The notes: generated by a model not told the origin, from the sequence alone. 50,528 bases of DNA from an uncultured Dehalococcoidales bacterium (GCA_964582065.1 CAZOQG010000001.1:1-50528), one strand, 5' to 3'. Counted from the stretch's first letter, positions 10,314 to 30,379 are shown. Numbers and translations are program-made.

Positions 10314-10334
10314 GGCCGCAGCACCCTCTTAGGC

Positions 10335-12245: not shown

Positions 12246-12255
12246 GGGGCAACAC

Positions 12256-13131
12256 GTGACATTCTTTTTGCAATGTGTTTTGAGTGGTATAAGTGCCGGA
12301 GCCGTATACGGCCTGGCGGCATTAGGTTTTGTCCTGATCTACAAGACAACAGGGATTTTGAATCTTGCCCAGGGTGCGCTCATAATGCTTGGCGGTTACT
12401 TGTTTTCTTCGCTAGCGCTACAGATGGATCTGCCTATATGGCTTGCCATTTTGCTAAGCCTCTTGATAATGGGTGCTTTGGGGTATTACGTGGAACGGTT
12501 CCCGTTACGCCCTATGCTTGGTCAGCCTCACCTGGCAATAATAATGGTAACCCTTGCCCTTAGTATCTTCTTTAGTGCCATCGTGACCTCAGTCTGGGGT
12601 GAATATGCAGTTATGCCGACCCCTTACTTCTTACCTGCAGGGGCAGTTCAAATAGGCGAGATGGTAATTACGTCAAACCTCTTCTGGTCATTCATAATAG
12701 CCGGGGCTATTGTAGGTGCCTTTATTCTTTTCTTCCAGTTCAGCAGGCTAGGGCTCAACATGAGGGCTACTGCTGAGGGTCACCAGATAGTGCGAAGCAT
12801 GGGAATAAGCGTAAGCGCTATTATCGCCGTGACCTGGGCCATTGCTAGCATCATCGGCACAACTGGAGGAATTCTCACCGGGCAGATCAGAGGCGTTGAC
12901 TATTGCCTAGCTGACTACGGGCTGAAAGCCATAGGGGGAGCTATCCTCGGTGGCCTGGACTCTATTCATGGTGCCATAATTGGTTGCCTCATAGTTGGGG
13001 TCCTGGAGACCCTGGCTGGCGGTTATATCGGTCACGGGATAAAGGACGTCTTCCCCTATATTATTCTGGTCATAGCCATAGTAATCAAGCCTTACGGTCT
13101 GTTCGGCTTGGAAAGGATAGAGAGGGTATAA
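12256..13131 (+). CDS. Branched-chain-amino-acid-type ABC permease, LivH-like
   Basis: 291 aa polytopic protein (AGAVYGLAALGFVLIYKTTGILNLAQG). GTG start behind AGGGGG. Confidence 0.9.
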   Translation: MTFFLQCVLSGISAGAVYGLAALGFVLIYKTTGILNLAQGALIMLGGYLFSSLALQMDLPIWLAILLSLLIMGALGYYVERFPLRPMLGQPHLAIIMVTLALSIFFSAIVTSVWGEYAVMPTPYFLPAGAVQIGEMVITSNLFWSFIIAGAIVGAFILFFQFSRLGLNMRATAEGHQIVRSMGISVSAIIAVTWAIASIIGTTGGILTGQIRGVDYCLADYGLKAIGGAILGGLDSIHGAIIGCLIVGVLETLAGGYIGHGIKDVFPYIILVIAIVIKPYGLFGLERIERV

Positions 13132-13133
13132 AA

Positions 13134-14189
13134 ATGGCTCTGCCTTGTGGTACTTACAACACCAGATACGAACAGGCGTTTGCCATTTTTCGCACTAAAA
13201 CCCACTGGGCGATGCTACTGGGACTGCTTGTTCTTCTCGCCATGCTCCCCTTTCTTTTGGACTCGTATTTTATGACTGTTATTAATATGATGTTAATCAT
13301 GATTATTGCTGTTCAAGGTCTCAATATCGTAACTGGTTACTGTGGACAGATACACTTTGGGCAGGCTGCCTTTATGGCAGTAGGGGCTTATAGCTCTGCC
13401 CTGCTTATGAATCACTTCGGGCTTTCCTTCTGGCTTTGTCTGCCTTTGGCCGGCATCATAGCGGCTCTCGTCGGCATACTCTTCGGGCTGCCTTCGGTGC
13501 GGGTTAAGGGAATTTATCTGGCTCTGGTTACATTAGCAGCTCAGTTCATCATTATCTATGTGATTGAGACCCCTCTCCAATGGCTAACGGGGGGGCAGTG
13601 GGCTCTGGATACTCCAGCCCCCCAACTATGGGGCTTTGTATTTAATACACAGATAGAGCTCTTCTATCTCATTGCTGGTATCACTGTTCTGATGACATTT
13701 TTTGCCAAGAACCTGGTGCGCACCCGGGTGGGCAGGAACTTCGTTGCCGTGAGAGACAACGATATAGCGGCCGAGGTTATGGGGGTTAATATCATGCGCA
13801 CCAAGGTTCTCGCCTTCGCGATTGCCTCTTTCTACGCCGGAGTGGCTGGTTCATTATGGGCTCATTACACCCAGGCGTTCACAACGACTGACTTTAACCT
13901 TATGCAGTCTATATGGTTTGTAGGCATGCTGATTGTGGGCGGTATGGGTACTATCGTCGGCCCCATACTGGGCACTATGTTTATCACGCTTCTGGATCAG
14001 TCGGTGCTCATGTTCACACCAACGATGGCTGCAACATTGCCCATGCTAACAGTAGCACAAATCTCTTCAATAGCGATGTTTGCCTTTGCTTTAGTCATCA
14101 TTGTATTCCTCGTCTGGGAGCCCAGGGGTTTGGCTCACAGATGGGAGATTCTTAAGATTTCCTATCGCTTATGGCCATTTGCATACTAA
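13134..14189 (+). CDS. Branched-chain-amino-acid-type ABC permease, LivM-like
   Basis: ATG 13134 lies 2 nt after the LivH-like stop. The ORF-track extension from 12984 overlaps LivH and is not coding. Typical motifs QGLNIVTGYCGQIHFGQAAFMAVGAY and RVKGIYLALVTLA. Confidence 0.9.
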   Translation: MALPCGTYNTRYEQAFAIFRTKTHWAMLLGLLVLLAMLPFLLDSYFMTVINMMLIMIIAVQGLNIVTGYCGQIHFGQAAFMAVGAYSSALLMNHFGLSFWLCLPLAGIIAALVGILFGLPSVRVKGIYLALVTLAAQFIIIYVIETPLQWLTGGQWALDTPAPQLWGFVFNTQIELFYLIAGITVLMTFFAKNLVRTRVGRNFVAVRDNDIAAEVMGVNIMRTKVLAFAIASFYAGVAGSLWAHYTQAFTTTDFNLMQSIWFVGMLIVGGMGTIVGPILGTMFITLLDQSVLMFTPTMAATLPMLTVAQISSIAMFAFALVIIVFLVWEPRGLAHRWEILKISYRLWPFAY

Positions 14190-14276
14190 ATTCAAGAGGA
14201 GGTGATATAAAGAGAGAAAAAGGACATTAGGATAAGAGGACAGGTTCAAATCAAGGATTATTAAGGAGGTTGAAAG

Positions 14277-15599
14277 ATGAAAAGAAGAAGTAGTTTTGCT
14301 TTTGTGGTTGTGATGAGTTTAGCATTGTTAGCTTTGCCTGTGATGACCGGTTGCGCACCGAAAGAGGCCGCTCCTTCACCAGCAGCACCAGCAGCAACAG
14401 AAGTTGTTAAGCCGGAAAGCGTTGGGATAGCTGCATTTGTCGACATGACTGGGCCTCTCCGTGCCATGTCATATCCAGGACATGTGGGCTACATAACCTA
14501 TTGGAGATGGCTTAACGAGACAGAGGGGGGGATTGATGGTGTGCCGATAAACTACATTGAGATTGACACCGTCTATGATATCAAGAAGATGCGCTCCGGC
14601 TACGAGCGGTATAAGGACGAAATAGTCACCTGTGAAGCGCAAGGGCAAAGTCCTTTCTATGACAGTCTAATGCCAAGGTTGGTCGAGGACAAGATACCGG
14701 CTTATTGCAGCATTGGTGGTTCTGATGCCTTTCTTTATCCCTCAACGAGTTGGCTTTATGGCGCCATCAATACGGCTGACCTTTTTGGGACTTACGCGCA
14801 GTGGGCTTTGGAGAATTGGACGGAGGACAGGAAACCGAGGGTAGCCATGCTGTTGGGTGACTATCCTGGCGGTAGGTTCCCACTATTCTGTCCCCCATAC
14901 CTGGAGTCCTTAGGTATGGAGGTCGTGGCTACGGAGCTTGTGCCCGTCAGAGGCTTAACCAGTACCATGGACCAGTTGCTCAGGATTACTAAGGCCAAGC
15001 CAGACTTTGTTTTTACCACCATAGTTACCAACCAGTTGGTGATAGTGCTGGATGAACTGCATGGCATGGGAATAGAGTTGGGGCCGAGAGAGCAGGGCAA
15101 GGATTTTGAGCTCTTTACTTCCTATGGGTTCGATCAAGATATGAGGGCAGCAATGCGCCCTGAGAACTGGGACGGTCTCATAGCCTCCGACAATTCGTGG
15201 GATTTCCAGAAATATGGCGATCCCGACTACCCATTCTATACGCTGATGGTGGACAAGTATATGGAGTACTATGATGTGCCCCAGGAGCGCCTTGCCCCCT
15301 CCATCGCCGGATTCTATGGCGGAATGATTATGGCAGAGGCGATAAGACTGGCGGCAGAAGAGGTAGGCTGGGAAAACCTGACCGGCGAAGCAGTTGGCCT
15401 TTATGGTTACCCCAATGTCAAGAATTTTGATACTGGCCTTTGCCCTCCGGTAACCTTCAGCAAGGATGACGGACGCCTGCAGGCTGGCTATCTGTTCCGA
15501 ACATACGAAGATGGGTCAACAGAGGACTTATGGGTCTATACGAAGATGCCATGGGTCTTTAAGTGGCTTGATGAGCAGGGTTTTCCTATTACTGACTGA
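14277..15599 (+). CDS. ABC substrate-binding lipoprotein (type-I periplasmic binding fold, Liv-like)
   Basis: Signal peptide with lipobox LLALPVMTGC, 440 aa. RBS AAGGAGG upstream. Lies between the permease and ATPase genes. Confidence 0.85.
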   Translation: MKRRSSFAFVVVMSLALLALPVMTGCAPKEAAPSPAAPAATEVVKPESVGIAAFVDMTGPLRAMSYPGHVGYITYWRWLNETEGGIDGVPINYIEIDTVYDIKKMRSGYERYKDEIVTCEAQGQSPFYDSLMPRLVEDKIPAYCSIGGSDAFLYPSTSWLYGAINTADLFGTYAQWALENWTEDRKPRVAMLLGDYPGGRFPLFCPPYLESLGMEVVATELVPVRGLTSTMDQLLRITKAKPDFVFTTIVTNQLVIVLDELHGMGIELGPREQGKDFELFTSYGFDQDMRAAMRPENWDGLIASDNSWDFQKYGDPDYPFYTLMVDKYMEYYDVPQERLAPSIAGFYGGMIMAEAIRLAAEEVGWENLTGEAVGLYGYPNVKNFDTGLCPPVTFSKDDGRLQAGYLFRTYEDGSTEDLWVYTKMPWVFKWLDEQGFPITD

Positions 15600-15626
15600 G
15601 TAAGCCTCGACCTGCGCAGGTGAGAA

Positions 15627-16421
15627 GTGCTGAAGATAAGTAATGTTGAGGTTACTTACGTCGACGTCATCCTCGTCTTGAGGGGGATTTCGCTACAGGT
15701 CGAAGACGCAAGTATTGTCGCCCTGCTAGGTGCCAATGGCGCTGGCAAGAGCACTACCCTCAAGGCCATATCCGGTCTGCTCCACACTGAAGAGGGAGAG
15801 GTAACCAGAGGCACCATTGAATTCGACGGGCACAGGATAGACAGGTTGAATCCCGAGCAAACGGCTAAGATGGGGATTATTCAGGTTGTGGAAGGCCGGC
15901 AGTTGCTCGAGCACCTGACCGTCGAGGAGAACTTGCATGTGGGAGGCAGTGTCTACAAAGGTGGAAGCAAGATGAGACAAGATCTAGACATGGTCTACGA
16001 TTACTTCCCCAAGCTCAAGATGCTCAGGAAGAGCACCAGCGGCTACCTGTCCGGCGGGGAGGGCCAGATGCTAGTGATGGGACGAGCCTTGATGGCACAT
16101 CCCAGACTTCTGCTTCTGGATGAACCTTCGCTAGGCCTGTCTCCCGTTCTGGTTAGGGAGATATATACGATAATAGGGAGAATCAACGACGAGGACAAGA
16201 CCTCAATCCTGCTGGTGGAGCAGAACGCGAAAGCGGCACTACGCATTGCTGAATACGGATACGTCATGGAGAATGGGAGAATAGTGCTTGATGGCCCGGC
16301 CGACGACCTCATAGACAATGAGGACATAAAGGAGTTCTACCTTGGTCTGAGTCAAGTGGGTGGGAAGAAGAGCTTTCGCGACGTGAAGCACTATAAGCGA
16401 AGGAAGAGATGGCTAGCGTGA
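15627..16421 (+). CDS. ABC transporter ATP-binding protein, LivF-like
   Basis: Walker A GANGAGKST, signature LSGGEGQML, Walker B LLLDEPSLGL and IKEFYLG. Confidence 0.9.
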   Translation: MLKISNVEVTYVDVILVLRGISLQVEDASIVALLGANGAGKSTTLKAISGLLHTEEGEVTRGTIEFDGHRIDRLNPEQTAKMGIIQVVEGRQLLEHLTVEENLHVGGSVYKGGSKMRQDLDMVYDYFPKLKMLRKSTSGYLSGGEGQMLVMGRALMAHPRLLLLDEPSLGLSPVLVREIYTIIGRINDEDKTSILLVEQNAKAALRIAEYGYVMENGRIVLDGPADDLIDNEDIKEFYLGLSQVGGKKSFRDVKHYKRRKRWLA

Positions 16422-16527
16422 GGTAGATGGTTGTCTCCCAGGGCTGTGCACGGACATGAGCTAGTCAACGGACCTGGACGGAAATTCAGAACAAAGCTCA
16501 GTAACTAAACCCAGCACGGAGGTAAGA

Positions 16528-17106
16528 ATGGGCTATCTAGAAGAAATGGCTAAATACCAGAAAACAGAAAAGCAGAAAAGCTTCTCAGCAGATTTTCTCG
16601 AGGCGGAACAGGTAGAAAACTATGAATTCTGGGATGAGATAGAGATTGGCAAGGAAACCGAAGTGCCAATCAAGTTTGAGGTCAAGGCTGAGGACATGAT
16701 GGCCTATGCAGAAGGAGTTCCCGATGACAGCCCTCTCTTCTACGACCAGGAATACGCCAAGAAGTGTGGCCATGATGGACTGGTGGCTCATCCCCTTTTT
16801 GGCACTCAGGTCGCGTTTTACGTCTTGAGGAAAGGGCATGGTAGCTGGCTCAGAACCCCAGGGGCTAGGAATCCGGGGCAGGTAATTGAGTGGTATAACC
16901 CGATTCGGGTTGGCGATGTTCTTACCATCAAACAGAAAGGCTACGACAAGTGGATCAAGAGGGGAAAGTACTACATGAGATATCTGCAGGAAACGTACGA
17001 CCAGAATGGCACTCTGAAGGGTAGGGCTTATGGAACTCTGATTCTACCGAGAACCAGGGAAGACGTACTGAAATTCGTGAAAGGGGAGCATGCCCTGGAA
17101 GCGTAA
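16528..17106 (+). CDS. MaoC-dehydratase N-terminal-type hot-dog protein (large subunit of a two-gene hydratase), copy A
   Basis: FEVKAEDMMAYAEGVPDDSPLFYDQEYAKKCGHDGLVAHPLFG matches the N-terminal-half MaoC pattern. A MaoC-proper gene follows. Confidence 0.75.
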   Translation: MGYLEEMAKYQKTEKQKSFSADFLEAEQVENYEFWDEIEIGKETEVPIKFEVKAEDMMAYAEGVPDDSPLFYDQEYAKKCGHDGLVAHPLFGTQVAFYVLRKGHGSWLRTPGARNPGQVIEWYNPIRVGDVLTIKQKGYDKWIKRGKYYMRYLQETYDQNGTLKGRAYGTLILPRTREDVLKFVKGEHALEA

Positions 17107-17167
17107 GAATCAGGACCGGGGTCTCTCGGGAGTATCAACAAATAACTGTGAAGTAGGAGGCAAGAAA

Positions 17168-17608
17168 ATGGCAGATAGACTTACGTTTAACTCGGTGGAT
17201 TGCGGGGATGTGTTACCCGAGGTAAAGCAGGAGAACAGTCAGGAACTTACCTGGAAGCATGCTGTAGCGTCGCTCGACTATAATCCCGTTCACACGCACC
17301 CCGAGTGGTGCAAGACAGCCCAGGTGTTTGGCCTACCTGTTACGGTGATGCACGGTAATCAGACTATGTCTCTTATGTGCAAGGTCATTACTGATTGGGC
17401 GTACCCTGTGGGCGGTCGCATGAAGAGGCTGGAGGTCAAACTGATTAAGCCCGTGCCCGTCGGTTCCACTTGTACCTATGGTGGTGCAGTGACTGAGAAG
17501 CACCCTATCGGTAAGGGACAGGACTTCGTGACCGTTGACGTATGGGCCAAGAACCAAGATGGAGAACAGGTAGGAATCGGTACCGCACAGGTTTCGTTGC
17601 CTAAGTAA
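17168..17608 (+). CDS. MaoC-like (R)-specific enoyl-CoA hydratase hot-dog protein (small subunit), copy A
   Basis: SLDYNPVHTHPEWCKTAQVFGLPVTVMHGNQTMSLM is the hydratase-2 motif region. ATG 17168 sits behind GGAGG. Confidence 0.8.
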   Translation: MADRLTFNSVDCGDVLPEVKQENSQELTWKHAVASLDYNPVHTHPEWCKTAQVFGLPVTVMHGNQTMSLMCKVITDWAYPVGGRMKRLEVKLIKPVPVGSTCTYGGAVTEKHPIGKGQDFVTVDVWAKNQDGEQVGIGTAQVSLPK

Positions 17609-17895
17609 CATTGTTTCGCAGACAGTCTATGTTCCGCCCAGCCACAGTTAGACCATGGTCGGGTAAGTGATGAACACAAAGGAGACGCAGCAGTATTCTG
17701 GCATGTTTCAGCTCCGCCGCGTTTGAGCATTGGTAGTGACCCTCTGCCGGCGCTGAGGATGGTATCAGGAAACCTGTGCACACCAGAGACACCTTGAGAC
17801 CGTTGGGAGGGGGGCGCTCTACCGTGAAAGGGATGTTTTGCGGAAGTGAGAACCAAAAGTGGGAATCAGAAACCAAGTTGAACAAGGAGGCAAGA

Positions 17896-18480
17896 ATGGA
17901 TTATCTGGAAGAAATGGCGAAATATCAGAAGACGGAAAAGGAGAAGGAGTTCGGATCCGATTTTCTCAAAACTCAGGAGGTCGAAGACTATGAATTCTGG
18001 GACGAGATAGAAATAGGCGAAGAGACTGAGACTGAGGTGCCAATCAAGTTTGAAGTCAAGGCTGAGGACATGATGGCCTATGCAGAAGGAGTTCCTGACG
18101 ATAGTCGTCTCTTCTACGATGAGGAATATGCCAAGAAGTGTGGCCACGATGGGTTGGTGGCTCATCCCCTCTTCGGTACCCAGGTCCTTTTTTTTGTTTT
18201 GAGGAAGGGGCATGGTAGCTGGCTCAGGACCCCAGGCTCCAGAAACCCGGGCCAGGTAATGGAGTGGTATGACCCGATTCGGGTTGGGGATGTCCTTGTT
18301 CTCAAACAGAGGGGCTACGATAAGTGGGTAAAAAGAGGGAAGTACTATATGCGGTACCTGGCAGAAGTATATGATCAGAACGGCACGCTCAAGAGCAGGC
18401 TTTTCACGACCCTGATTCTGCCCAAAACCAGAGCTGATGTATTGAGGTTTGTCAAAGGCGAGCATGCTCTGGAAGCGTGA
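17896..18480 (+). CDS. MaoC-dehydratase N-terminal-type hot-dog protein, copy B (no partner gene)
   Basis: Close paralogue of 16528-17106, including a 41-nt identical run (16681-16721 = 18055-18095). ATG 17896 sits behind AAGGAGG. The ORF-track start at 17776 is not supported. Confidence 0.75.
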   Translation: MDYLEEMAKYQKTEKEKEFGSDFLKTQEVEDYEFWDEIEIGEETETEVPIKFEVKAEDMMAYAEGVPDDSRLFYDEEYAKKCGHDGLVAHPLFGTQVLFFVLRKGHGSWLRTPGSRNPGQVMEWYDPIRVGDVLVLKQRGYDKWVKRGKYYMRYLAEVYDQNGTLKSRLFTTLILPKTRADVLRFVKGEHALEA

Positions 18481-18745
18481 GCGTTGCACGATAAACTGTA
18501 CAGTGAGAAGCAAATAGTCAGCATCGTCGGCGCGATCATTGTGGGTAGTCACTAGCGTTGGCGTACCCCCATTGTGAACGACGCGCGTAGCTGAGTTGTA
18601 TTTGTCAAGCATAGACGATATCCAGTCAGTTTCTTTTCTGGTCTGCAGCGTATTCGGTTTTGCGTCCTTTGTTTTGGGTGGTATATTGGTACACAGCATT
18701 GTTAGGCGACATTGACTGATGAACGCAAACCAGGGAGGTATGCAA

Positions 18746-19510
18746 GTGAAAGGACTCGAAGGGAAGGTTGCTCTGGTCACCGGTGGAGGCTCGGGAATTG
18801 GCCGAGCTACGGCCCTGGCATTTGCCCACGAGGGAGCAAAGGTTGTTATTGCCGGGCGGGGTGCTGAGCGTGGTAACGAGACGGTACAACTGATCAAGCA
18901 GGCCGGCGGCGAAGCTGTCTTTGTCAAGACAGACGTGTCGAAGGCAGCCGAAGTCGAGGCATTAGTCAACAGAGTCGTTGAGACCTGCGGACGGCTAGAT
19001 TACGCCTTCAACAACTCTGGCGTAGGAGCAAGCGGGGCGCGGTTGGCAAAAGAAACCGAGGAAATCTGGGATCGTACAATCAACACCAATCTCAAAGGGG
19101 TGTGGCTATGCATGAAGTACGAGATCCTGCAGATGCTGAAACAGGGAGGCGGAGCCATCGTGAACTGCTCGTCCACCTTTGGGCTGGGCGGCGGCTACAG
19201 GATAGCAGCCTACAGTGCAAGCAAGCACGGCGTAGTGGGGCTGACAAAGTCGGCTGCGATGGACTATGCCAAGGATAACATCCGGGTCAATGCGGTGTGT
19301 CCCGGATGGATAAAGACGGACATGCTGCGGCCGGTCTTAAAGGACCGCCTCGACATAGCTGAGGACAGTGTGCCAGAGGTGCCATTGGGACGAATGGGTG
19401 CGCCGGAAGAAGTCGCCGAAGCAGTGGTATGGTTGTGCACAGAGTCAGCTTCGTTCATCACGGGGGACGCAATGGTTATAGGTGGCGGGACGGCACTATC
19501 AGCGCTGTGA
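18746..19510 (+). CDS. Short-chain dehydrogenase/reductase (FabG-like)
   Basis: Motifs TGGGSGIGRA, NNSG and YSASKHG. GTG 18746 is 7 nt behind GGGAGG (18733-18738). Alternative starts are ATG 18740 and ATG 18719. Confidence 0.9.
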   Translation: MKGLEGKVALVTGGGSGIGRATALAFAHEGAKVVIAGRGAERGNETVQLIKQAGGEAVFVKTDVSKAAEVEALVNRVVETCGRLDYAFNNSGVGASGARLAKETEEIWDRTINTNLKGVWLCMKYEILQMLKQGGGAIVNCSSTFGLGGGYRIAAYSASKHGVVGLTKSAAMDYAKDNIRVNAVCPGWIKTDMLRPVLKDRLDIAEDSVPEVPLGRMGAPEEVAEAVVWLCTESASFITGDAMVIGGGTALSAL

Positions 19511-20422: not shown

Positions 20423-20833
20423 TTAGGTTAGAGTTGCCGGCATTAGAGCTGGCTGTACACCTTGAGGAGGCGGCGGCCGATAACCAAGAGAGCTATGCGG
20501 TCGGAACTGCTTGTATTCCCTCCTCCAGTGCTCTATCAAAATCTTGCCTCAACTAGCGTCGTGACTATCTCCCGATTGAGGAACTCATCCCTTAGCTTGC
20601 CAATGTGTAGGTTTTCAGCAAGAATGAGACAGTTGGAAGGTCAAGGTTAAGACACGCTTCTTCGGTAGAATCACGGTCAGCGCAACAATAGCCCGGATTG
20701 TGCAGTCGGCAGTAAGATTGGCGAAAACGGAACAACTCGGGCTATCAAGTCGCAACCTTTCCGGATTACCCGCCCTTGTGGTGATAAGGCCAAAGGCTGG
20801 CTTGAGTTGGCTACCAATCACCTTACGTTCCAT
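20423..20833 (-). mobile_element. Degraded remnant of an rve-type (IS3-family-like) transposase, C-terminal third only, frame-shifted
   Basis: The minus strand reads GKLRDEFLNREIVTTLVEAR (20601-20542). After a frameshift it reads ILIEHWRREYKQFRPHSSLGYRPPPPQ...* with stop at 20423-20425. Upstream is a degenerate ERKVIGSQL...GNPERLRLDSPS (cf. SRKVVGW ... PE.LRSDNGPEF). No DDE core and no terminal repeats were identified. Confidence 0.7.
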
Positions 20834-20977
20834 AGTATGGAGACGCTTGAATACCGTTTTGCTAAGTAGGCGTTTCCGCGTAGAATCTCCGGGATATGAT
20901 TTCCTTGCCTCTCCAAGAAATTGAAATCATCAAGAACTCATGGTAGATTATGGCATGGCAAAAAGGGAGGAGCATGC

Positions 20978-23344
20978 GTGAAAGAACATGTTAAGACCCT
21001 TGAGGAGAAAGAAGGATCGCAGCGCTTCAAGCGCATAAGGCAGGAACTTCTCTCCACGCCGGTCCACTTGTGCCCGGAGCGGGCATATCTCGTCACCGAC
21101 TACTTTAGGCATCACGATAATCCAACTGAGCCCATGGTGATTCGTAAGGCCAGGGCCTTGCGCCATGTTCTGAGGCATAAATCAGTGCGCATCTATCCTG
21201 ATGAGCTGATCGTGGGCAACGTAGGCAGCCAGCGCATCTCAGCCCTTATCCAACCTGAGTTGAGCGGAGTTTTCATGAGCGGAGACTTGCTGTGGATAGA
21301 TAAGAGGAAGACAACTCCTTTGCGCATCCCCTGGCGTGACCGTCTGAAGTTGCTCTTCCGCGTCTTCCCTTACTGGCTCGTTCGCAACATGCCTTTCCGG
21401 GCCTTCTTTCCGCGTTTCCGCCAGTTGTTCCGCTACGTGGTAGAACAGCTCAACGCCACCTATTACCTGATCAACGAGGCCGGCGGCATCGGACACTTTC
21501 TTCCCAACTATGAAAGGATGCTCAAGTTGGGTGTAAAGGGTTATCTGGAGATTATGGTGGGAAAAGAAGGAGACCTCCACCGCGCGGCGCGCATCGCCTG
21601 TGAAGGCCTGGTTGACTTTGCCACCCGCTTGGCGCAGGAGGTCGAGCGTTTGGCTGCTGCGGAAGAAAATACGGCCCGCGCCGCTGAACTCAACGAAATA
21701 GCGCGTATCTGCCACAAGGTCCCATCTGGCCCTGCCGAGACCTTTCATGAAGCCTTGCAGTCCCTATGGCTGACCCACATGGCAGTGAGCCTGGAGGGAC
21801 TCAACTCCGCTATCTCCTTCGGGAGGATGGACCAGTATCTTTATCCCTATTACCGGCGTGACCTGGAGGAAGGTAGAATCAACCCCGAGCGAGCCCGCGA
21901 GCTTCTGCTTTGCTTCTCCGCCAAGGCCACCGAGCACGTCTTCCTGCTCTCGGAGGGAGTCAGCCAGTACCATGGTGGCTACCTGGTGGTGCAGGCAGCG
22001 ATAGTAGGAGGCATGGACCGAGAGGGAAAGGATGCCGTCAACGATCTTACGTACCTCTTTCTCGACGTAATGGAGGAATCCGGCCTCCGGGACCCCAACT
22101 ACCAGGCGCGAATTCACGCCGGTTCTCCGGATAGTTACCTGAGACGAGTGGCGGATGTGGCGAGGAAAGGCAACGGGGTACCGGCCCTCTTCAATGACGA
22201 GGCTGCTACAGCCTCCCTTGTGGCACACGGCTATCCTGTGGAAGAGGCACGCAATTATGGGGTGGTGGGGTGCGTGGAGCTGGCCTTGCCCGGGAAGAGC
22301 TTCTTGTCCACGGATGCCGCGCTGTTCAATCTTCCTCTCTGCCTCGAGCTGGCACTCAACCGTGGAAGGCGGCTCAAGGGTCGCCAGCAAGTGGGTGCTG
22401 CCACCCCGGATTCTGCCTCTTTCACCAGTATTGACCAGGTGATTGAAGCCTTCCGGGCGCAGGTGGAGCACATGGTGGCACGTATGATAGGTGACCTTCA
22501 GGTGATCGAGAAAGGGAATAGTGATTACCACCCCACCCCCTTCTCCTCGCTGCTGGTTGACGGCTGCCTGGAGTCAGGACAAGATGTCACTGGCGGCGGA
22601 GCCCTGTATAACTCCAGTGGTATCCAGGGAGTAGGGGTGGCAGACATGGCGGATTCACTGGCGGCTCTAGATGAGGTGGTGTTCCAGCGCCACAAATATA
22701 CCATGCCTCAGGTGCTGAAGGCCCTGCGTGACGACTTCGCTTCTGCCCGTGAGGTACGGGCCGAGCTACTCAAGGCGCCAAAGTACGGGAACGACCATAC
22801 CCTGCCCGATGACTATGCCAATCTGGTAGTACGTAGTTTCCACTCGGCCCTTGCTCGACACCGCAACATGCGTGGAGGCTCCTACGTGCCCGGGTTTTAT
22901 TCCGTGACATGCCACGTGGCCTTCGGGCAGCGAGTGGGCGCCTTGCCCAGCGGAAGAAGGGCTGGAGAACCATTCGCAGCTAGCTTGGGAGCGGCCAATG
23001 GGCGGGACCGCCTGGGGCCCACTGCCCTGCTCAACTCAGTGGCGCACATAGACTCCACATTGTCGCCCAACGGTTACGCCCTGAACCTTCGTTTCGATTC
23101 TCGCACCCTGGCCGGTGATCAAGGGGTAAATATCCTGACCGCTTTGGCGAAAGGCTTTTTCGAATCAGGGGGGATGGAAATGCAACTAAACGTGCTCGAC
23201 CCTGACATGTTGGAGGACGCCCGCCGTAATCCGGGGAAGTACCCGGGGCTGGTAGTACGCGTATCAGGTTATTGCGCTTACTTCGATGATCTTCCTGACG
23301 CCGCAAAACAGGACATCATCGCCCGAACCTGCCTCGAGGTATGA
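20978..23344 (+). CDS. Glycyl radical enzyme 1 (PFL2 / dehydratase-like family), substrate unknown
   Basis: Glycyl loop VVRVSGYCAYF (Gly codon 23267-23269). Thiyl loop VVGCVELALPG (Cys codon 22271-22273, Glu 22277-22279). GTG 20978 is 5 nt behind GGGAGGAG. Confidence 0.9.
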   Translation: MKEHVKTLEEKEGSQRFKRIRQELLSTPVHLCPERAYLVTDYFRHHDNPTEPMVIRKARALRHVLRHKSVRIYPDELIVGNVGSQRISALIQPELSGVFMSGDLLWIDKRKTTPLRIPWRDRLKLLFRVFPYWLVRNMPFRAFFPRFRQLFRYVVEQLNATYYLINEAGGIGHFLPNYERMLKLGVKGYLEIMVGKEGDLHRAARIACEGLVDFATRLAQEVERLAAAEENTARAAELNEIARICHKVPSGPAETFHEALQSLWLTHMAVSLEGLNSAISFGRMDQYLYPYYRRDLEEGRINPERARELLLCFSAKATEHVFLLSEGVSQYHGGYLVVQAAIVGGMDREGKDAVNDLTYLFLDVMEESGLRDPNYQARIHAGSPDSYLRRVADVARKGNGVPALFNDEAATASLVAHGYPVEEARNYGVVGCVELALPGKSFLSTDAALFNLPLCLELALNRGRRLKGRQQVGAATPDSASFTSIDQVIEAFRAQVEHMVARMIGDLQVIEKGNSDYHPTPFSSLLVDGCLESGQDVTGGGALYNSSGIQGVGVADMADSLAALDEVVFQRHKYTMPQVLKALRDDFASAREVRAELLKAPKYGNDHTLPDDYANLVVRSFHSALARHRNMRGGSYVPGFYSVTCHVAFGQRVGALPSGRRAGEPFAASLGAANGRDRLGPTALLNSVAHIDSTLSPNGYALNLRFDSRTLAGDQGVNILTALAKGFFESGGMEMQLNVLDPDMLEDARRNPGKYPGLVVRVSGYCAYFDDLPDAAKQDIIARTCLEV

Positions 23345-23421
23345 ACTAGCATCCTCGTCCATCGACTCTAAAGACACACCGACACCACGCCTTTCAGCAC
23401 ATGGCTCAGGCTGGACACTGC

Positions 23422-24564
23422 TTATGATTCTATTCTAACCTTGTCAGGAAGGATTTGACCCAAGAGCTTTATCGCTCCATCCACCATATCATCCAGGATT
23501 TGCTTGGCAGGCTTCGTATCATTAAGCATTCCCACAATCTGCCCTGTAGGCGCACACAGGAGGTCGTGCCTCTCCACCTCCGCCAGGCTGTCAATGAGAT
23601 CGGCCATGAGTAGCACCTGCGTCACCATAGGTAGAGCAGGCATCCCCGACTTATCAAAGGCCTCTTGTATTGGGTTCTTTATCTGGCGCAGGGTTTTGCC
23701 TGTCCACACCCTGCTGACTGCGGTGCCCTCTTCAGTAGCTTCCGTCATCATCTTCCGATGGATATCGGTGACATTCGCCTCCTCAGCAAAGAGGAAGGCA
23801 GTGCCTACCCAGACTCCAACAGCTCCCAGTGCCAGAGAGGCGACAAGTCCCCTGCCATCGCCTATCCCCCCGGCAGCCAAAACCGGGGTAGGTGACACAG
23901 TATCTACGACCTGGGGAATCAAGGCAAAGGTGCTCACCCTGCCAGTGTGGCCTCCCGCCTCATGTCCCTGAGCCACGATGAAGTCGGCACCCGCCTTCTT
24001 GTGGCGCAGCGCACCCCGTACATTGCCAGCCAGCCCCAGTACCCTCATTCCTCCTTCATGAGCCATGGGTACCACCCATTCTAGAATCCCCACGGCTGAG
24101 CAGAAAAGAGGAACACCCTCCTCTAGCATCACTTGTATCTGCTTCTTGGAGTGCTCCTCAGTGAAGATGAACTCTTGCTTAGTCTCAGCAAGAGTCACGC
24201 CATAGTCTTCCGCCAACTTCTCCACAAAGTCGATATGCTCTTTAGGGACAAATTTCCTTTTCATTTCCGCCAAAGACATATCTGCAGGTGGCGCCTCAGT
24301 AAGGGCGCTGGGAAGCAACACGTCAACCCCAAACGGCTTGTCAGTGAGGCTCTTGATCTCCCTAATCTCGGTACGCAGTTCATCCAAGGGCAGACCAGTA
24401 GCCCCCAGAACACCCATTCCACCGGCGTTGGACACGGCACCAACAAGCTTCGGCTGCGCTGAGTGACCCTCACCAGCCAGGCCCCCCATGCCAGCAAGCA
24501 GAATGGGGTACTCAATACCCAGCATGTCGCAGAGTTCGGTATGAAGTATCTTCCTCTTATTCAC
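23422..24564 (-). CDS. Nitronate monooxygenase / FabK-like FMN-dependent oxidoreductase (NMO family)
   Basis: YPILLAGMGG, NAGGMGVLG and AQGHEAGGHTG. GTG 24564 sits behind AAAGGAG. The ORF-track start at 24642 is the TTG of the -35 box. Confidence 0.85.
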   Translation of the reverse strand: MNKRKILHTELCDMLGIEYPILLAGMGGLAGEGHSAQPKLVGAVSNAGGMGVLGATGLPLDELRTEIREIKSLTDKPFGVDVLLPSALTEAPPADMSLAEMKRKFVPKEHIDFVEKLAEDYGVTLAETKQEFIFTEEHSKKQIQVMLEEGVPLFCSAVGILEWVVPMAHEGGMRVLGLAGNVRGALRHKKAGADFIVAQGHEAGGHTGRVSTFALIPQVVDTVSPTPVLAAGGIGDGRGLVASLALGAVGVWVGTAFLFAEEANVTDIHRKMMTEATEEGTAVSRVWTGKTLRQIKNPIQEAFDKSGMPALPMVTQVLLMADLIDSLAEVERHDLLCAPTGQIVGMLNDTKPAKQILDDMVDGAIKLLGQILPDKVRIES

Positions 24565-24614
24565 CTTTTCTCCTTTCTCTTCTTGCTCTCGGAACCCTGT
24601 ACCCCGCAAATCAC

Positions 24615-24642
24615 AGTATAACACGCGGACAAGCAGTGTCAA
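24615..24642 (-). promoter_or_regulatory. Sigma-70-type promoter of the NMO-like gene
   Basis: On the minus strand: TTGACA (24642-24637), 16-nt spacer, TATACT (24620-24615). The GTG start is about 50 nt downstream. Confidence 0.55.
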
Positions 24643-24686
24643 CAGAAGGATGTAGCCTCTCTCAATCCGTGACTAACGATGCCAAC

Positions 24687-24716
24687 TTGCATTTGCGGGC
24701 AGACATGCCATAAAAT
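24687..24716 (+). promoter_or_regulatory. Candidate promoter of the GRE-2 / activase / crotonase unit
   Basis: TTGCAT (24687-24692), 18-nt spacer, TAAAAT (24711-24716), about 95 nt upstream of ATG 24812. Confidence 0.45.
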
Positions 24717-24811
24717 CGCGGTAGGGGTTTGGACGAGAGGGGAAAGACAAAACCTGAAGTCAAAAGTCGAGCTTTTCGCACCAGACAGACTCGAATAAAC
24801 AACGGGAGGAC

Positions 24812-27211
24812 ATGATGTCTACCAGAACTCAAACGCTTATGGTAAATACTCCCATAAAAGCCCAACAGATTGCGCTAGCAGAGCTTAGTGAGGATGTAAG
24901 GGCGACGAGACCTGGCTTCAAATGGTCTCTGGACCTGGAGAGGGCAAGATTGCTAACAGAATCCTACAAGCAAACCGAAGGGGAGCCCATGGCTCTCAGG
25001 AGAGCAAAGGCCTTGGCACACATCCTGTCAAATATGACCGTATATATCCGGCCGGGTGAGTTGATTGTAGGTAACTATGCATCTGATTCAGACTCTGTCC
25101 CTTTCTACCCTGAGTTCGCCTGGAAATGGATAGTAAGGGAGACGGCACCAGGGGCAGTTTACAGCGGTATGTTGACCGACGAAGGCAGGGAAGAGTTGAA
25201 GGAAATATGTAGCTATTGGGGTGATTTAGCCATACACCACAGGCTGAGAACATATCTGCCAGAAGACTTGGCCGATATGTTCTGGATTTTTAATTGGGAG
25301 TCTACCACGCCAAACTATGAGAAGATCCTCGAGATGGGCTTGAAGGGCATTATTGAAGATGCCAGGGAGAGAAAGACGAAGTTGGATGGGGAGTACATGG
25401 CGGAGACTATCAATGGTGTAGACTTTGTTAAGAAGAAGGACTTCCTGGACAGCGTTATCATTGCCCTGGATGCTGTGATTAAGTGGAGTAAGAGATATGC
25501 AGCGCTAGCCAGAGAGCTAGCTGAGACCGATGATGACCGGCTAAGGAAGCAGGAACTAGAAACTATAGCCAATACCTGCCAATGGGTGCCGGAAAACCCT
25601 GCCCGAATATTCCAGGAGGCGCTGCAGTGCTATTGGTTCATTCACCTCATCGTCAACTTCATTGAACTGCCCCAGGTAGGCAGCGGAATAAGGTTTGACC
25701 AATGCTTCAATCGCCTCTATGAGAAAGACGTACGGGAAGGAAGGCTGAACAGAGAGCAAGCTCAAGAACTGGTCGAGTTCTTGTTTGTGAAATTCCAGGA
25801 GACTGGCTTCTTGCACGCACCTATATGGTCAGGTTTTGGAGGCGGTGCCCTGGGGTTCCAAACGGTTACCATCGGTGGGACAGACTCCGAGGGCCGCGAT
25901 ATCACCAATGAAGTGAGTTACATAGTCTTGGACGCTACTAAAAGCGTAACAGCTATAGTCCCTCCGTTGGCTCTAAGATGGCACGATGGAATGCCCAAGA
26001 AGTTAATTGATAAGGCTATTGAGGTGCTGGCCTCAGGAATGCCTCAGCCGGCTATCTTCAACGACAAAGTGAATGTATTGAGATTGGTCAGCCTCGGTTG
26101 CTCCATCGAAGATGCCAACAACTACTCCATCAACAATTGCATGGTGCCGACTATCCCGGGCAAGAACTTCAATCATATGTCAGCCTGGGCTAATGGCATA
26201 CCTGTTGCTCTATGCCTGAATCATGCCTTGGGAGTAAGCCCTGTAGCGTTATATAAGAGGGCCGGTGATACCACGATAGACCCGGCGACGCTAAGCTCGG
26301 TCGATGAATTGCTTGGCGCCACGGTTGAGAACTACAAATGGCTTGTGCACCGGCTAGTTCTGATAGCAAACATTGCTGATGCTCTTTATCAGGAATATGC
26401 GCCAAGGCCATTCCTATCAAGCGTGATTGATGACTGCATTGAGAAAGCTCAGGACGTTAGAGATTGGAACTATACGCCAGATTACAGAGATATTACTCTC
26501 TTCGGCCTTAACACTGTCGCCGATTCCTTGGCAGCTATAAAGAAGCTGGTATTTGATGAGAAGAAGATATCTATGGAGAAACTGGTCGAGGCTTTAAGGA
26601 GCAATTGGCAGGGTTACGAAGACCTTCACAGGGCGTGTCTTGGAGCTCCGAAGTTTGGCAATGATGATGATTATGTCGACTCAATATCACGGGAGCTCGG
26701 AAAGAGAATTTCTGAAGAGACCCAGAAATGTAAAACAAACCGGGGGACTCCTGTTGTTGTAGATGGCACAGCGGCAACCGCCTGGTGGAGCTTTGGGCGT
26801 GTCTGTGCCGCTACACCAGATGGCAGAAGCGCAGGCGACCCATTCAATGACGGGACGATTTCGCCGATGGCTGGCAGGGACAAGAAAGGGCCTACAGCAG
26901 TGCTGAAATCGGTTTCAAAGGTTGACCCACTAATAAGTTGGAATCAGCTGTTCAACCAGACTTTCATGCCCCAATACCTTGTAGGCCACAATGCCGAGCT
27001 GTTCGCCCAATATCTAAAGACCTTCGGCGATCTGGGTATTCACCACGTTCAGTTCACCACGGTTGGTAGAGAGACGTTGGAAGATGCCCAAAAGCATCCG
27101 GAGAAATACCCCAGTCTGATGGTGAGGGTGGCCGGGTTTGCTGCCTACTTCATAGACCTCGACAAGAACTTGCAGGATTCAATCATTGCCAGAACCCCCC
27201 AGTGCCTCTGA
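24812..27211 (+). CDS. Glycyl radical enzyme 2 (PFL2-like) with an atypical Cys loop, substrate unknown
   Basis: Glycyl loop MVRVAGFAAYF (Gly codon 27134-27136). Thiyl loop YSINNCMVPTIPG (Cys codon 26138-26140). RBS GGGAGG upstream of ATGATG. Confidence 0.9.
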   Translation: MMSTRTQTLMVNTPIKAQQIALAELSEDVRATRPGFKWSLDLERARLLTESYKQTEGEPMALRRAKALAHILSNMTVYIRPGELIVGNYASDSDSVPFYPEFAWKWIVRETAPGAVYSGMLTDEGREELKEICSYWGDLAIHHRLRTYLPEDLADMFWIFNWESTTPNYEKILEMGLKGIIEDARERKTKLDGEYMAETINGVDFVKKKDFLDSVIIALDAVIKWSKRYAALARELAETDDDRLRKQELETIANTCQWVPENPARIFQEALQCYWFIHLIVNFIELPQVGSGIRFDQCFNRLYEKDVREGRLNREQAQELVEFLFVKFQETGFLHAPIWSGFGGGALGFQTVTIGGTDSEGRDITNEVSYIVLDATKSVTAIVPPLALRWHDGMPKKLIDKAIEVLASGMPQPAIFNDKVNVLRLVSLGCSIEDANNYSINNCMVPTIPGKNFNHMSAWANGIPVALCLNHALGVSPVALYKRAGDTTIDPATLSSVDELLGATVENYKWLVHRLVLIANIADALYQEYAPRPFLSSVIDDCIEKAQDVRDWNYTPDYRDITLFGLNTVADSLAAIKKLVFDEKKISMEKLVEALRSNWQGYEDLHRACLGAPKFGNDDDYVDSISRELGKRISEETQKCKTNRGTPVVVDGTAATAWWSFGRVCAATPDGRSAGDPFNDGTISPMAGRDKKGPTAVLKSVSKVDPLISWNQLFNQTFMPQYLVGHNAELFAQYLKTFGDLGIHHVQFTTVGRETLEDAQKHPEKYPSLMVRVAGFAAYFIDLDKNLQDSIIARTPQCL

Positions 27212-27230
27212 TCTCCTCAAAGAGAAGGAT

Positions 27231-28175
27231 ATGGCTCGCTCACACTCCCCAGGTCAGAAGAACCAGGGTGCAGCGGACGGGTTGGTATTTAGCATTCAGA
27301 GGTATAGCATTCAAGACGGCCCCGGAATCAGAACCACAATATTCCTTAAGGGCTGTCCGCTGAAATGCAAATGGTGCTCCAACCCCGAATCGCAGAATCC
27401 ACACCCTGAGATCATGGTCAGAAAAGCAAGATGCAATGGGTGTGGAAAGTGTTTGGACGTTTGCGACTGCCGCGCCATTACTGTGGATGAAGACGGTTTG
27501 CGCGTAGACAGGTCGAGGTGTGATTTATGCATGAAATGCGTGGATGTGTGTCCCACAGATGCAATAGAAATCACAGGGAAAAACATGACTTTAGAAGAGG
27601 CAATAGAGGAATGCAGCAAAGATGAGCTGTTCTATCGCAATTCAGGCGGCGGTGTGACATTATCTGGCGGTGAACCTCTGTACCAGCCGGAATTCGCTCT
27701 GAACTTGCTGAAGGAGTGTAAGGAGAGAGCTCTTAGCACGGCTCTTGATACTTGCGGCTACGCCAGTTGGGAGGTCTTAGACAAGGTCCTGGGATACACG
27801 GACCTGGTCCTGTTCGATATTAAGCACCTGGATCCTGAAATCCACCGCAAGGGTACGGGCCTTGGGAATCAGCTTATCCTTGAAAACCTCAGGAAGATTA
27901 TTGACGCCGGGAGAACAAGAGTCTGGCTAAGAGTCCCGATTATCCCTAACTACAGTGATTCCGCGCAATATATGGAGAGCTTAGCAGTAGCCGTCGCAGA
28001 AATGCCTGTTGAAAAGATTTCCCTGTTGGCTTACCACGAATGGGGCAAGCCAAAGTATGAGTTCTTGGGCAGAGACTACCCGCTTGATGGTTCCGTCCCC
28101 CCGAGTGAAGACAGACTGCAGACTTTGCAGGACATCATGCAGTCCAAAGGGCTGCAAGTTACCATCGGCTATTAG
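27231..28175 (+). CDS. Glycyl-radical-enzyme activating enzyme (radical SAM, with two auxiliary ferredoxin-type clusters)
   Basis: DGPGIRTTIFLKGCPLKCKWCSNPES (C-x3-C-x2-C), CNGCGKCLDVC and CDLCMKCVDVCP. ATG 27231 lies 19 nt after the GRE-2 stop. Confidence 0.9.
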   Translation: MARSHSPGQKNQGAADGLVFSIQRYSIQDGPGIRTTIFLKGCPLKCKWCSNPESQNPHPEIMVRKARCNGCGKCLDVCDCRAITVDEDGLRVDRSRCDLCMKCVDVCPTDAIEITGKNMTLEEAIEECSKDELFYRNSGGGVTLSGGEPLYQPEFALNLLKECKERALSTALDTCGYASWEVLDKVLGYTDLVLFDIKHLDPEIHRKGTGLGNQLILENLRKIIDAGRTRVWLRVPIIPNYSDSAQYMESLAVAVAEMPVEKISLLAYHEWGKPKYEFLGRDYPLDGSVPPSEDRLQTLQDIMQSKGLQVTIGY

Positions 28176-28339
28176 AAGATCCCGGCTTGGGGAGAGAATT
28201 GCCCGGTTTGCGCCCCATCAGGACCGACAATAGCCAATGTCTCCCGTTGTTCCAACAACACTAACCGAGGGTTGACTTCTCCACAAGCGACTCAAGCGCT
28301 GTATTAGGTTATAATGGGACATAGAAAAGGAGGTCACCT

Positions 28340-29131
28340 ATGGAGCATGAAGAACTCAGACTGGAAAAGGCGGAGGGTGTTGCCGTTATGACTCTCAACC
28401 GCCCGAAAAGGCTGAATGCCCTCACAATGAAAATGATGCGGGAATTCGACAAGCTCTTCAGGGAGCTTCAAGAGGATGACGACGTGCGAGTGTTGATTAT
28501 TACCGGGGCAGGTGAAGGTTTTTGTGCCGGGGCCGATGTTGATTCGTTAACTTCAATAACTCAGCTTGGCTCAGATTTGCCAAGACAAGAAAGGCTGCAG
28601 GCTATCGGTGCTTTCGCTTTGTTGCTTTATAACCTGGAGAAGCCAGTCATTGCTGCAGTCAACGGCGTAGCAGCAGGAGCCGGTGTATCAATTGCGCTGC
28701 TCTCAGATATCAGGATCGCCTCTGAGAAAGCCAGGTTTACCATGGCCTTCGTTCGTAGGGGCCTGATTCCAGACTGCGGGGCTACCTTTTTGATGCCAAG
28801 ATTGCTCGGTGCCGCAAAATCATTTGAGCTGATGTACACGGGTGACATCATTGATGCCAGAGAGGCAGAACGTGTAGGTCTGGTCAATAAAGTTGTTCCA
28901 CATGACAGGCTGATGGATGAAGCCACTGTCCTGGCCAAGAGGCTGGCCAAAGGACCCCCGCTGGCCCTGGCGCAAATTAAACGTGCTGTTCACAGCGGCT
29001 TGATGAACGATCTTGAGCAACAGCTATACTTTGAATCGTACGCGCAGAACTTCTGCGCTGGGACAGAGGATCTCAAGGAAGGGGTCAGCTCATTCGTCGA
29101 GAAGCGTGAGCCGCAATTCAAAGGCCGGTAA
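28340..29131 (+). CDS. Enoyl-CoA hydratase/isomerase (crotonase) family
   Basis: LNRPKRLNAL, ITGAGEGFCAGADV and AAVNGVAAGAGVSIAL. RBS AAGGAGG upstream. Confidence 0.9.
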   Translation: MEHEELRLEKAEGVAVMTLNRPKRLNALTMKMMREFDKLFRELQEDDDVRVLIITGAGEGFCAGADVDSLTSITQLGSDLPRQERLQAIGAFALLLYNLEKPVIAAVNGVAAGAGVSIALLSDIRIASEKARFTMAFVRRGLIPDCGATFLMPRLLGAAKSFELMYTGDIIDAREAERVGLVNKVVPHDRLMDEATVLAKRLAKGPPLALAQIKRAVHSGLMNDLEQQLYFESYAQNFCAGTEDLKEGVSSFVEKREPQFKGR

Positions 29132-30358: not shown

Positions 30359-30379
30359 ATCAACTCCTGCTTGAGCTGC

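Follow-up and report, generated by a model that had tools for sequence, protein, structure and literature searches.

Dehalococcoidia, Desulfobacterota and Asgard archaea dominate anoxic sediments, and the 'Ass/Bss-like' glycyl-radical enzymes (GREs) of these groups serve metagenome papers as evidence of anaerobic hydrocarbon degradation. GREs from metagenome-assembled genomes (MAGs) of Chloroflexi, Actinobacteria, Thorarchaeota and Lokiarchaeota were reported to be 'phylogenetically distant' from canonical alkyl- and arylalkylsuccinate synthases and to cluster with PflD of Archaeoglobus fulgidus (Dong, 2019; PMC6472368), and Hermodarchaeota GREs were named 'Ass/Bss' from 29-33% identity to AssA and BssA (Zhang, 2021; PMC8163825). 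The fumarate-contacting residues of BSS are Arg508, Asn611, Trp613 and Asn615 (PMC13298812), and a Cys-x-Glu motif is kept by all GRE eliminases and isomerases (PMC13450708, sections 5.6-5.7). The latter review, of 2026, names as open problems the uncharacterised clades and the debate on whether A. fulgidus PFL2/PflD (AfPFL2) is a glycerol dehydratase or MASS. Here we analysed a 50,528-nt stretch of DNA (hereafter the window) from an uncultured Dehalococcoidales bacterium (GCA_964582065.1 CAZOQG010000001.1:1-50528), which carries two GREs, GRE-1 and GRE-2, together with one activase and a flavoenzyme of the NMO/FabK family (NMO; Table 1). The two GREs probably belong to separate glycyl-radical systems that share a FabK/NMO-type neighbour, with GRE-2 and its activase as a widespread module and GRE-1 as a stand-alone gene. 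A sequence-only reading of the window had put forward a candidate undescribed pathway. The families themselves had not gone unnoticed, since metagenome papers had already named such GREs as putative fumarate-adding enzymes (PMC6472368, PMC8163825); what is new here is that the two families are separated and their contexts analysed.

One genome per GTDB species was scanned for GRE-2, which gave 63 loci, all in MAGs and 48 of them near full length; none of the species representatives found was closer than 86%. The bacterial hosts are Dehalococcoidia and other Chloroflexota, Thermodesulfobacteriota, SAR324, Spirochaetales, Leptospirales and NPL-UPA2, and the archaeal hosts are Asgard lineages (Hermod-, Prometh-, Jord-, Thor-, Hod- and Freyarchaeota). 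Among the 48 loci, 43 had enough downstream sequence, and the activase gene starts at most 700 nt downstream of GRE-2 in 40 of these. GRE-2 and the activase are a conserved two-gene unit. The activase of the window starts 19 nt past the GRE-2 stop, contains CPLKCKWC and two ferredoxin-type Cys clusters, and passes TIGR02494 with 362 bits against a cutoff of 174. It is also the sole activase-like sequence that tblastn detected in the window.

This unit is tied to enzymes that handle CoA esters. NMO, the crotonase, FadD-type ligases and a CrtISO-like/FNR/Fer2 fusion were each found in 20 of the 48 GRE-2 loci, while the 82 GRE-1 loci used as a control contained them in four, two, six and one cases, respectively. 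The fusion protein (882 aa) combines a flavoprotein of the carotenoid-isomerase/phytoene-desaturase family with an FNR-like domain and a 2Fe-2S domain. Its gene lies directly upstream of GRE-2 or a few genes downstream (L009:16887-19535, L048:7320-9965 and 20 further Chloroflexota loci), and is absent from the window. A homologue of the fusion protein with 63% identity was also observed near GRE-1 in the Actinobacteria locus L004.

Two arrangements were recognised in Chloroflexota. In Dehalococcoidia (e.g., L048 and L025), the genes follow the order FadD-NMO-crotonase-fusion-GRE-2-activase on one strand with gaps of 18-47 nt, the frames of GRE-2 and the activase overlap, and the operon is followed by RlmN and four tandem FadD paralogues. 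All ligases of this operon scored highest on models of long-chain-fatty-acid-CoA ligases. The second arrangement consists of crotonase-OYE/dienoyl-CoA-reductase-NMO-MarR, divergent from GRE-2-activase-binding protein-…-crotonase-fusion-SCP2-SCP2. To this second type the NMO, crotonase and activase of the window are 77-81, 75-77 and 69-72% identical, respectively, and the crotonase orthologues near GRE-2 in the 20 loci showed 55-77% identity. In 6-7 Chloroflexota loci, the gene after the activase encodes a LivK-type binding protein. In the other bacteria, the unit is accompanied by an acyl-CoA dehydrogenase (ACAD) and an NMO-like gene, or by a ligase.

The homologues of GRE-1 are very numerous and unusually well conserved, with 68-98% identity across MAGs of Chloroflexota, Actinobacteria and Thermodesulfobacteriota. 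We collected 82 GRE-1 loci (80 from the metagenome scan and 2 look-ups), and neither GRE-2 nor an activase was present near GRE-1 in any of them. Since no activase was found in these 82 loci, GRE-1 is a stand-alone gene and must be activated in trans. Moreover, de novo clustering of open reading frames (ORFs) on 81 loci revealed no conserved neighbour above 11 loci, the top cluster being a 206-aa membrane protein, and single look-ups at 75-87% identity led to surroundings unrelated to those of the window.

The sequence-only reading had joined GRE-1, NMO, GRE-2, the activase and the crotonase into one pathway, in which the two GREs act sequentially and share the single activase. The genes do adjoin, both in the window and in L001, a relative of 94-96% identity, only one activase is found in 50 kb, and NMO-type genes recur next to both GRE families. 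The order GRE-1-NMO-GRE-2-activase-crotonase was nevertheless seen only in L001 besides the window; GRE-1 is absent from all 48 other GRE-2 loci, which, with the 82 GRE-1 loci above, speaks against a conserved five-gene unit. In the 94% relative L155 (ENA ERZ24794679 NODE_26681), the GRE-1 and NMO block matches positions 20894-24577 of the window at 90% nucleotide identity, and is flanked by homologues of the window genes at 3.6-7.7 kb and by a different Liv/ligase cluster; neither GRE-2 nor an activase lies on this 14-kb contig. A putative transposase remnant also sits at the junction, in the 806-nt gap between a metallophosphoesterase gene and GRE-1. Because the order occurs only in L001, GRE-1 and NMO lie elsewhere in L155, and a transposase remnant stands upstream, the juxtaposition of GRE-1 and GRE-2 appears to be a lineage-specific rearrangement. 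We therefore consider a single sequential pathway quite unlikely: the tie of GRE-2 and its activase to CoA-ester enzymes stands, and the place of GRE-1 in a conserved unit does not. The GC content at third codon positions (GC3) of GRE-1 is the highest among the 31 window genes measured, only about 2 standard deviations above the mean, and is thus weak evidence of transfer.

Two further features of this region were observed. The window segments 3561-7725 and 20894-24577 are directly joined in L155, where the intervening ~13 kb (TetR, Liv, acyl-CoA synthetase, MaoC and SDR genes) is absent or located elsewhere. The breakpoint of the block shared with L155 lies near 20894, just downstream of the transposase remnant.

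A shared activase was weighed through the Gly loops. Cross-activation is documented only for GREs with identical or near-identical Gly loops (PMC13450708, section 2.5). The loops of GRE-1 (RVSGYCA) and GRE-2 (RVAGFAA) are similar, which favours the one-pathway proposal, but they differ at 3 of 7 positions. Variants found within the families come closer to each other (RVAGYCA and RVAGYSA), with a difference at one position only. Activation of GRE-1 by the activase of GRE-2 is possible. Since the arrangement is not conserved, one activase for both GREs is at most a default assumption and not a feature of the system. In the locus L010 (7506-13357), GRE-2 occurs as a tandem pair (84 and 82% identity to GRE-2 of the window), and a single activase follows. 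This is a clearer instance of one activase beside two GREs, though both copies are close paralogues.

NMO is the element common to both GREs. Its orthologues lie beside GRE-2 in Chloroflexota and, at 83% identity, beside GRE-1 in L155, and distant NMO-like genes (28-29% identity) adjoin GRE-1 in L002/L078, L094 and L074. The top solved relatives of NMO are FabK enoyl-ACP reductases (155 bits). It belongs to PF03060 at the family level and scored 219.6 bits against the cutoff of 453.1 on the FabK equivalog TIGR03151. The presence of NMO beside both GREs may mean that the two enzymes generally require an FMN reductase to act after them, or may be due to chance.

Both GREs were then compared with the characterised families. 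GRE-1 and GRE-2 are members of the PFL-like GREs, with PF02901 and PF01228 domains, a C-terminal RVxG[FY] Gly loop and a Cys loop in the middle of the protein. The Cys codon of GRE-1 (TGC, 22271-22273) falls within YGVVGCVELALP and its Gly codon (GGT, 23267-23269) within VVRVSGYCAYF, and those of GRE-2 (26138-26140 and 27134-27136) fall within YSINNCMVPTIP and MVRVAGFAAYF, respectively. The two proteins share 32% identity over ~790 residues, therefore they are not recent duplicates, as the sequence-only reading had also held. On TIGR01774, the PFL2/glycerol-dehydratase subfamily model, GRE-1 and GRE-2 scored 639 and 559 bits against a cutoff of 678, and both stayed below half of each NCBIfam equivalog cutoff (HypD, HpsG, HpfG, CutC, IAD, HPAD and PFL). 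Neither GRE is thus orthologous to a named dehydratase. The top solved matches were AfPFL2 (2f3o), CutC and glycerol dehydratase (GDH) for GRE-1, and GDH and propanediol dehydratase (PD) for GRE-2. Pairwise identity to the reference GREs did not exceed 37% for either GRE (BLASTP), which places both outside the characterised families.

The AlphaFold2 model of GRE-2 showed the standard GRE fold (pLDDT 86.8, pTM 0.91). In Foldseek it matched every solved GRE with a TM score of 0.86-0.91 and an identity of at most 34%; since all GREs score alike, the fold search does not discriminate between them. Overall, Pfam, NCBIfam, the PDB sequence search and Foldseek gave no characterised GRE closer than 34-37% identity. 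A formate-lyase of the PFL or TdcE type was rejected because both GREs have a single Cys, without the Cys-Cys pair, and scored 124-164 bits on TIGR01255 (cutoff 994). The GRE decarboxylases HPAD and IAD were rejected at 271-380 bits against cutoffs of 1100-1150 and for the lack of a small subunit; NCBIfam holds no PAD or AAD model. Two leads from the literature were also set aside. Limonenylsuccinate synthase (PMC12583861) shares 61% identity with Bss, is truly BSS-like and belongs to another family than GRE-2, and the papers on anaerobic benzene degradation (PMC13101534, PMC13416013), considered as a precedent for a CoA-ester-linked GRE, deal with flavoproteins and not with GREs.

GRE-1 has the complete set of eliminase residues. 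C432-V-E434, invariant as C-V-E in 26 of 26 family members, is accompanied by His173 in GGIGH (GDH His164), Asp446 (GDH Asp447) and Tyr641 (GDH Tyr640), and the radical is expected at Gly764. The general-acid His and Asp of the GDH/PD type are therefore both present, and Ser282 of GDH is replaced by Ala in GRE-1 and likewise in AfPFL2. Judged from these residues, the most likely role of GRE-1 is that of a dehydratase, lyase or isomerase with a hydroxylated substrate. In our trees the GRE-1 family was monophyletic (100%) and paired with AfPFL2 at 79-100% bootstrap, and alkane activation has been proposed for AfPFL2-like GREs of Chloroflexi and Actinobacteria MAGs (PMC6472368, PMC13450708), so that GRE-1 might be read as an alkylsuccinate synthase, as proposed for AfPFL2 itself. 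This is very improbable for GRE-1, which keeps the Cys-x-Glu, His and Asp of the GDH-type eliminases, while succinate synthases have C-M-S-P and no such His. In addition, GRE-1 shares 25-28% identity with BSS/MASS and just 37% with AfPFL2, and neither small subunits nor a conserved β-oxidation context were found with it.

GRE-2 has a different active site. Its Cys loop, N-N-C443-M-V-P, is invariant in 49 family members except for Val445, which is Ile in two, so that the position of the Glu in Cys-x-Glu is taken by Val or Ile in 49 of 49. Furthermore, the GxGH segment bearing the eliminase His is deleted, and Ser457 occupies the position of GDH Asp447. The motifs C-M-x-P (C-M-S-P in BSS and MASS) and DKKGPTAVL[KR]S are common to GRE-2, BSS and MASS. 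The phylogeny was examined with neighbour-joining trees of 44 sequences and 610-747 columns under six settings, for which the reference sequences were rebuilt from PDB alignments, with all block lengths in agreement, and supplemented with E. coli PflB, PflD and YbiW; these trees are distance-based and were built without CutC, HypD, HplG, HPAD, IAD, PAD and AAD. Together with two paralogues of 51% identity found in MAGs of Deltaproteobacteria (L057 and L058), the GRE-2 family was monophyletic at 100% bootstrap and was sister to BSS, MASS and AssA at 78-93% over the six settings, without being nested within that clade. Neither GRE ever grouped with GDH/PD in these trees.

This placement bears on the proposal, made for Hermodarchaeota homologues of 62-64% identity (PMC8163825), that GRE-2 does add fumarate, as a genuine alkyl- or arylsuccinate synthase working without small subunits. 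Besides the sister relation and the two shared motifs, the β-oxidation-type and SCP2 genes of the context and the position of the 51% paralogue directly downstream of a true AssA in L058 are in favour of it. The fumarate-binding residues are not. BSS Arg508 aligns with Met456 of GRE-2 (codon 26177-26179), and the N611-G-W613-H-N615 loop is replaced by an invariant D557-Y558-R559-D560; this loop is two residues shorter in GRE-2, therefore the structural equivalence is uncertain and the alignment-based reading tentative. The residue at position 456, compared across the homologues in L007-L066, varies by lineage: 38 bacterial sequences have Ile, the window lineage has Met and one sequence has Val, so that L057 and L058 are the only typed bacterial members with the Arg, which is also present in 13 of 14 archaeal sequences and supports the proposal there. 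This split may mark two functional subtypes of GRE-2. Provided that the alignment holds at the structural level, binding of a dicarboxylate is tentatively still open to the Asgard type but not to the bacterial type of the window.

The identity to BSS/MASS is just 31-32%, and the β/γ Fe-S subunits, which BSS and MASS require for solubility and turnover, have no counterpart. Neither in 59 loci nor in the window was GRE-2 accompanied by a conserved ORF of 35-130 aa containing four or more Cys, and no BssB/BssC-type small Cys-rich intergenic ORF occurs between 19.5 and 29.5 kb of the window. A succinyl-CoA-type transferase or mutase is likewise not among the recurrent neighbours. On balance, fumarate addition by GRE-2 is unlikely.

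Two observations were made on the paralogue locus L058 (7091-12442; DAOWME010000015, Deltaproteobacteria MAG CSMAG_2994). The gene directly upstream of the 51% GRE-2 paralogue is an AssA/MasD orthologue with 1297 bits to 9o8u, and the paralogue is followed by an NMO-family gene, a family III CoA-transferase, an acyl-CoA synthetase and an ACAD. No activase was found there within 22 kb.

A decarboxylase of the arylacetate decarboxylase (AAD) type was also considered for GRE-2, since AAD likewise has no such Glu and no accessory subunit (PMC13450708). With the Cys-loop segment alone as the query, the top solved match was AAD 7e7l (GGCVLHQVPGK, E 2e-13). The overall identity to AAD, however, is 28-29%, the lowest rank among the GRE folds, and the NCBIfam decarboxylase models are far below their cutoffs. 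A volatile hydrocarbon product would leave a tight operon with ligases, crotonase and enoyl reductase unexplained, and the tree, in which AAD itself is not included, puts GRE-2 with the succinate synthases. Very little weight can be given to this alternative.

We return to two separate systems. The activase would install the radical on Gly775 of GRE-2, and Cys443 would form the working thiyl radical, as expected from family membership. GRE-2 has neither the Glu nor the His used by all GRE eliminases and isomerases, therefore it would not be a dehydratase or lyase. Its substrate might be hydrophobic and lipid-like (an acid, an acyl-CoA or a hydrocarbon), from which GRE-2 would abstract a hydrogen before forming or rearranging a C-C bond, without eliminating a leaving group. 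The product could be handled as a CoA thioester by the FadD-type ligases, the crotonase and the FabK-type enoyl-thioester reductase. GRE-1 would be activated in trans, possibly via the activase of GRE-2 in this genome. That GRE-2 carries out a non-eliminase radical reaction on a lipid-like substrate feeding a thioester pathway is suggested only tentatively, from sequence and gene context. The region corresponding to the toluene pocket of BSS (residues 381-391) aligns with an invariant Gly-rich loop in GRE-2, W339-S-G-x-G-G-G-A-L-G-F-Q, and residues 336-348 (window 25817-25855) form one of only two low-confidence segments of the model (pLDDT <50). This loop might become ordered upon ligand binding, or might bind phosphate or carboxylate.

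A bolder reading takes the GRE-2 family for a functional class of its own, new among the GREs and neither eliminase, isomerase, formate-lyase, decarboxylase nor fumarate-adding synthase, which would act on or produce long-chain or isoprenoid-type acyl thioesters. For instance, a C-C bond could be formed or rearranged by radical chemistry, which would unblock the anaerobic β-oxidation of otherwise recalcitrant lipids. This would explain the Dehalococcoidia operon with its FadD, crotonase, FabK-type reductase and carotenoid-isomerase-like flavoprotein, as well as the spread into Asgard archaea. We regard such a class as conceivable and on the doubtful side.

Several points weigh against our interpretation. 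The loci are not phylogenetically independent, therefore the Fisher tests overstate significance. The CoA-ester neighbours occur mainly in Chloroflexota, and most Asgard loci contain GRE-2 and the activase alone. Many GRE-1 loci lie on short contigs, with more than 3 kb upstream in only 43 and more than 3 kb downstream in 50. NMO-like genes stand directly beside GRE-1 in several unrelated contexts (the loci named above), so there may be a functional tie between GRE-1 and the flavoenzyme, and hence some link between both GREs here. The raw identity of GRE-2 is higher to GDH (37%) than to BSS (32%), therefore its sister relation to the succinate synthases could be a tree artefact. Finally, the chemistry suggested for GRE-2 is drawn from missing residues, from a distance tree in which the reference enzymes number only ten, and from gene context.

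The features of the locus are listed in Table 1. All those listed by the sequence-only reading were found where it had placed them, including NMO between the GREs, divergent from GRE-2 and convergent with GRE-1, and the crotonase after the activase. The wider context was borne out as well; it comprises BCR-like genes, a Liv importer cluster enclosing an acyl-CoA synthetase gene, three sets of MaoC genes, an SDR, and an ACAD with EtfAB. For the block of possible accessory genes, synteny was seen only in L001, and its tie to the GREs is only a candidate one. Scans for promoters and terminators gave match counts no higher than the shuffled expectation.

Table 1. Features of the window around the two GREs (coordinates in nt from the first position of the window).
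Feature	Position	Strand	Basis
Possible accessory genes: TetR, LivG, acyl-CoA synthetase, LivH/M/K/F, MaoC pair, MaoC, SDR	8855..19510	+	
Putative transposase C-terminal remnant (ILIEHWRREYKQFRPHSSLGYRPPPP)	20423..20560	-	Identified by motif
GRE-1, stand-alone eliminase-type GRE, 788 aa	20978..23344	+	PF02901 E 2e-176, PF01228 E 1.3e-25
FMN-dependent NMO/FabK-family oxidoreductase	23422..24555	-	PF03060, E 2e-63
Sigma-70-like promoter match TTGACA-16-TATACT, 11/12	24615..24642	-	Consensus only; upstream of NMO, divergent intergenic region
GRE-2, non-eliminase GRE, 799 aa	24812..27211	+	PF02901 E 1.2e-164, PF01228 E 4.9e-26
GRE-activating radical-SAM enzyme, dedicated partner of GRE-2	27231..28175	+	CX3CX2C and two ferredoxin-type clusters
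Crotonase-family enoyl-CoA hydratase/isomerase	28340..29131	+	PF00378, E 6.8e-67

Other genes of the window were noted. Three MaoC-type (FAS1_DH_region) paralogues at 16528-17106, 17896-18480 and 40476-41060 share 77-83% mutual identity, and two of them have MaoC_dehydratase partners, which share 71% identity with each other. Straight after the crotonase, the minus strand of 29162-30883 encodes a PD-(D/E)XK nuclease and an RNase H-like protein (PF13482), a pair that is kept in L001. At the window edge (57-2722) lies a BCR/2-hydroxyacyl-CoA-dehydratase-type set, consisting of an HgdB-like D component and two BcrAD-family ATPases, which is probably cut off upstream. In other loci this set is unlinked to either GRE, except for single weak matches in L073 and L084.

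The separation of the two families bears on the use of these enzymes as marker genes. They are often lumped together, while GRE-1 has an eliminase-type site, and the GRE-2 of bacteria is without the fumarate-binding residues, which may not be true of Asgard archaea. Moreover, a compact conserved operon of FadD, NMO, crotonase, flavoprotein fusion, GRE-2 and activase is now defined and open to cloning and direct assay. Whatever its outcome, such an assay would show whether an inference commonly drawn from these marker genes needs correction or is confirmed, and it could add a new reaction type to the GRE repertoire.

Compared with the known systems, NMO shares its PF03060 membership with FabK, but is ~50-60 residues longer and has no fatty-acid synthesis context. 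With the B12-independent dehydratases GDH (1r8w) and PD (5i2a), as well as further CXE eliminases and isomerases, GRE-1 has in common Cys-x-Glu, His164, Asp447 and Tyr640 (GDH numbering), and its residue numbering is nearly that of GDH. GDH and PD are the best overall sequence matches of GRE-2 (37%) and near-best of GRE-1 (34-35%). GRE-1 differs from them in having no adjoining activase, no microcompartment or aldehyde-handling genes and Ala at Ser282, and its low identity is too low for the same substrate; GRE-2 differs in the absence of both Glu and His. AfPFL2, whose function is debated, is the best solved match and tree partner of GRE-1, and the two are alike in CVE, His, Asp and the Ala at Ser282. 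Their identity is only 37%, and the activase PflC adjoins AfPFL2 according to the literature, unlike in the 82 GRE-1 loci.

The Hermodarchaeota and Promethearchaeota MAG proteins with 62-64% identity belong to the GRE-2 family, and an activase adjoins each of them. From taxon and annotation, not from accession, we infer that they equal the GREs of PMC8163825 and PMC6472368. These Asgard members have Arg at 456, compared with Met or Ile in the bacterial type of the window, and the NMO/crotonase/ligase operon is absent from their loci. The X-succinate synthases (BSS α, 4pkc/5bwe; MASS α, 9o8u) resemble GRE-2 in fold (TM score 0.89-0.91), in the single catalytic Cys of a C-M-x-P loop without Glu, in DKKGPTAVL[KR]S, in an adjoining dedicated activase with ferredoxin-type inserts and in a CoA-ester gene context. 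GRE-2 differs from them by its 31-32% identity, the absence of β/γ(/δ) Fe-S subunits, Met456 at Arg508, D-Y-R-D for N-G-W-H-N, and the invariant Gly-rich WSGxGGGALGFQ in the toluene-pocket region. And where the X-succinate synthases have Bbs or mutase neighbours, GRE-2 has instead a FabK-like reductase, a crotonase and FadD ligases.

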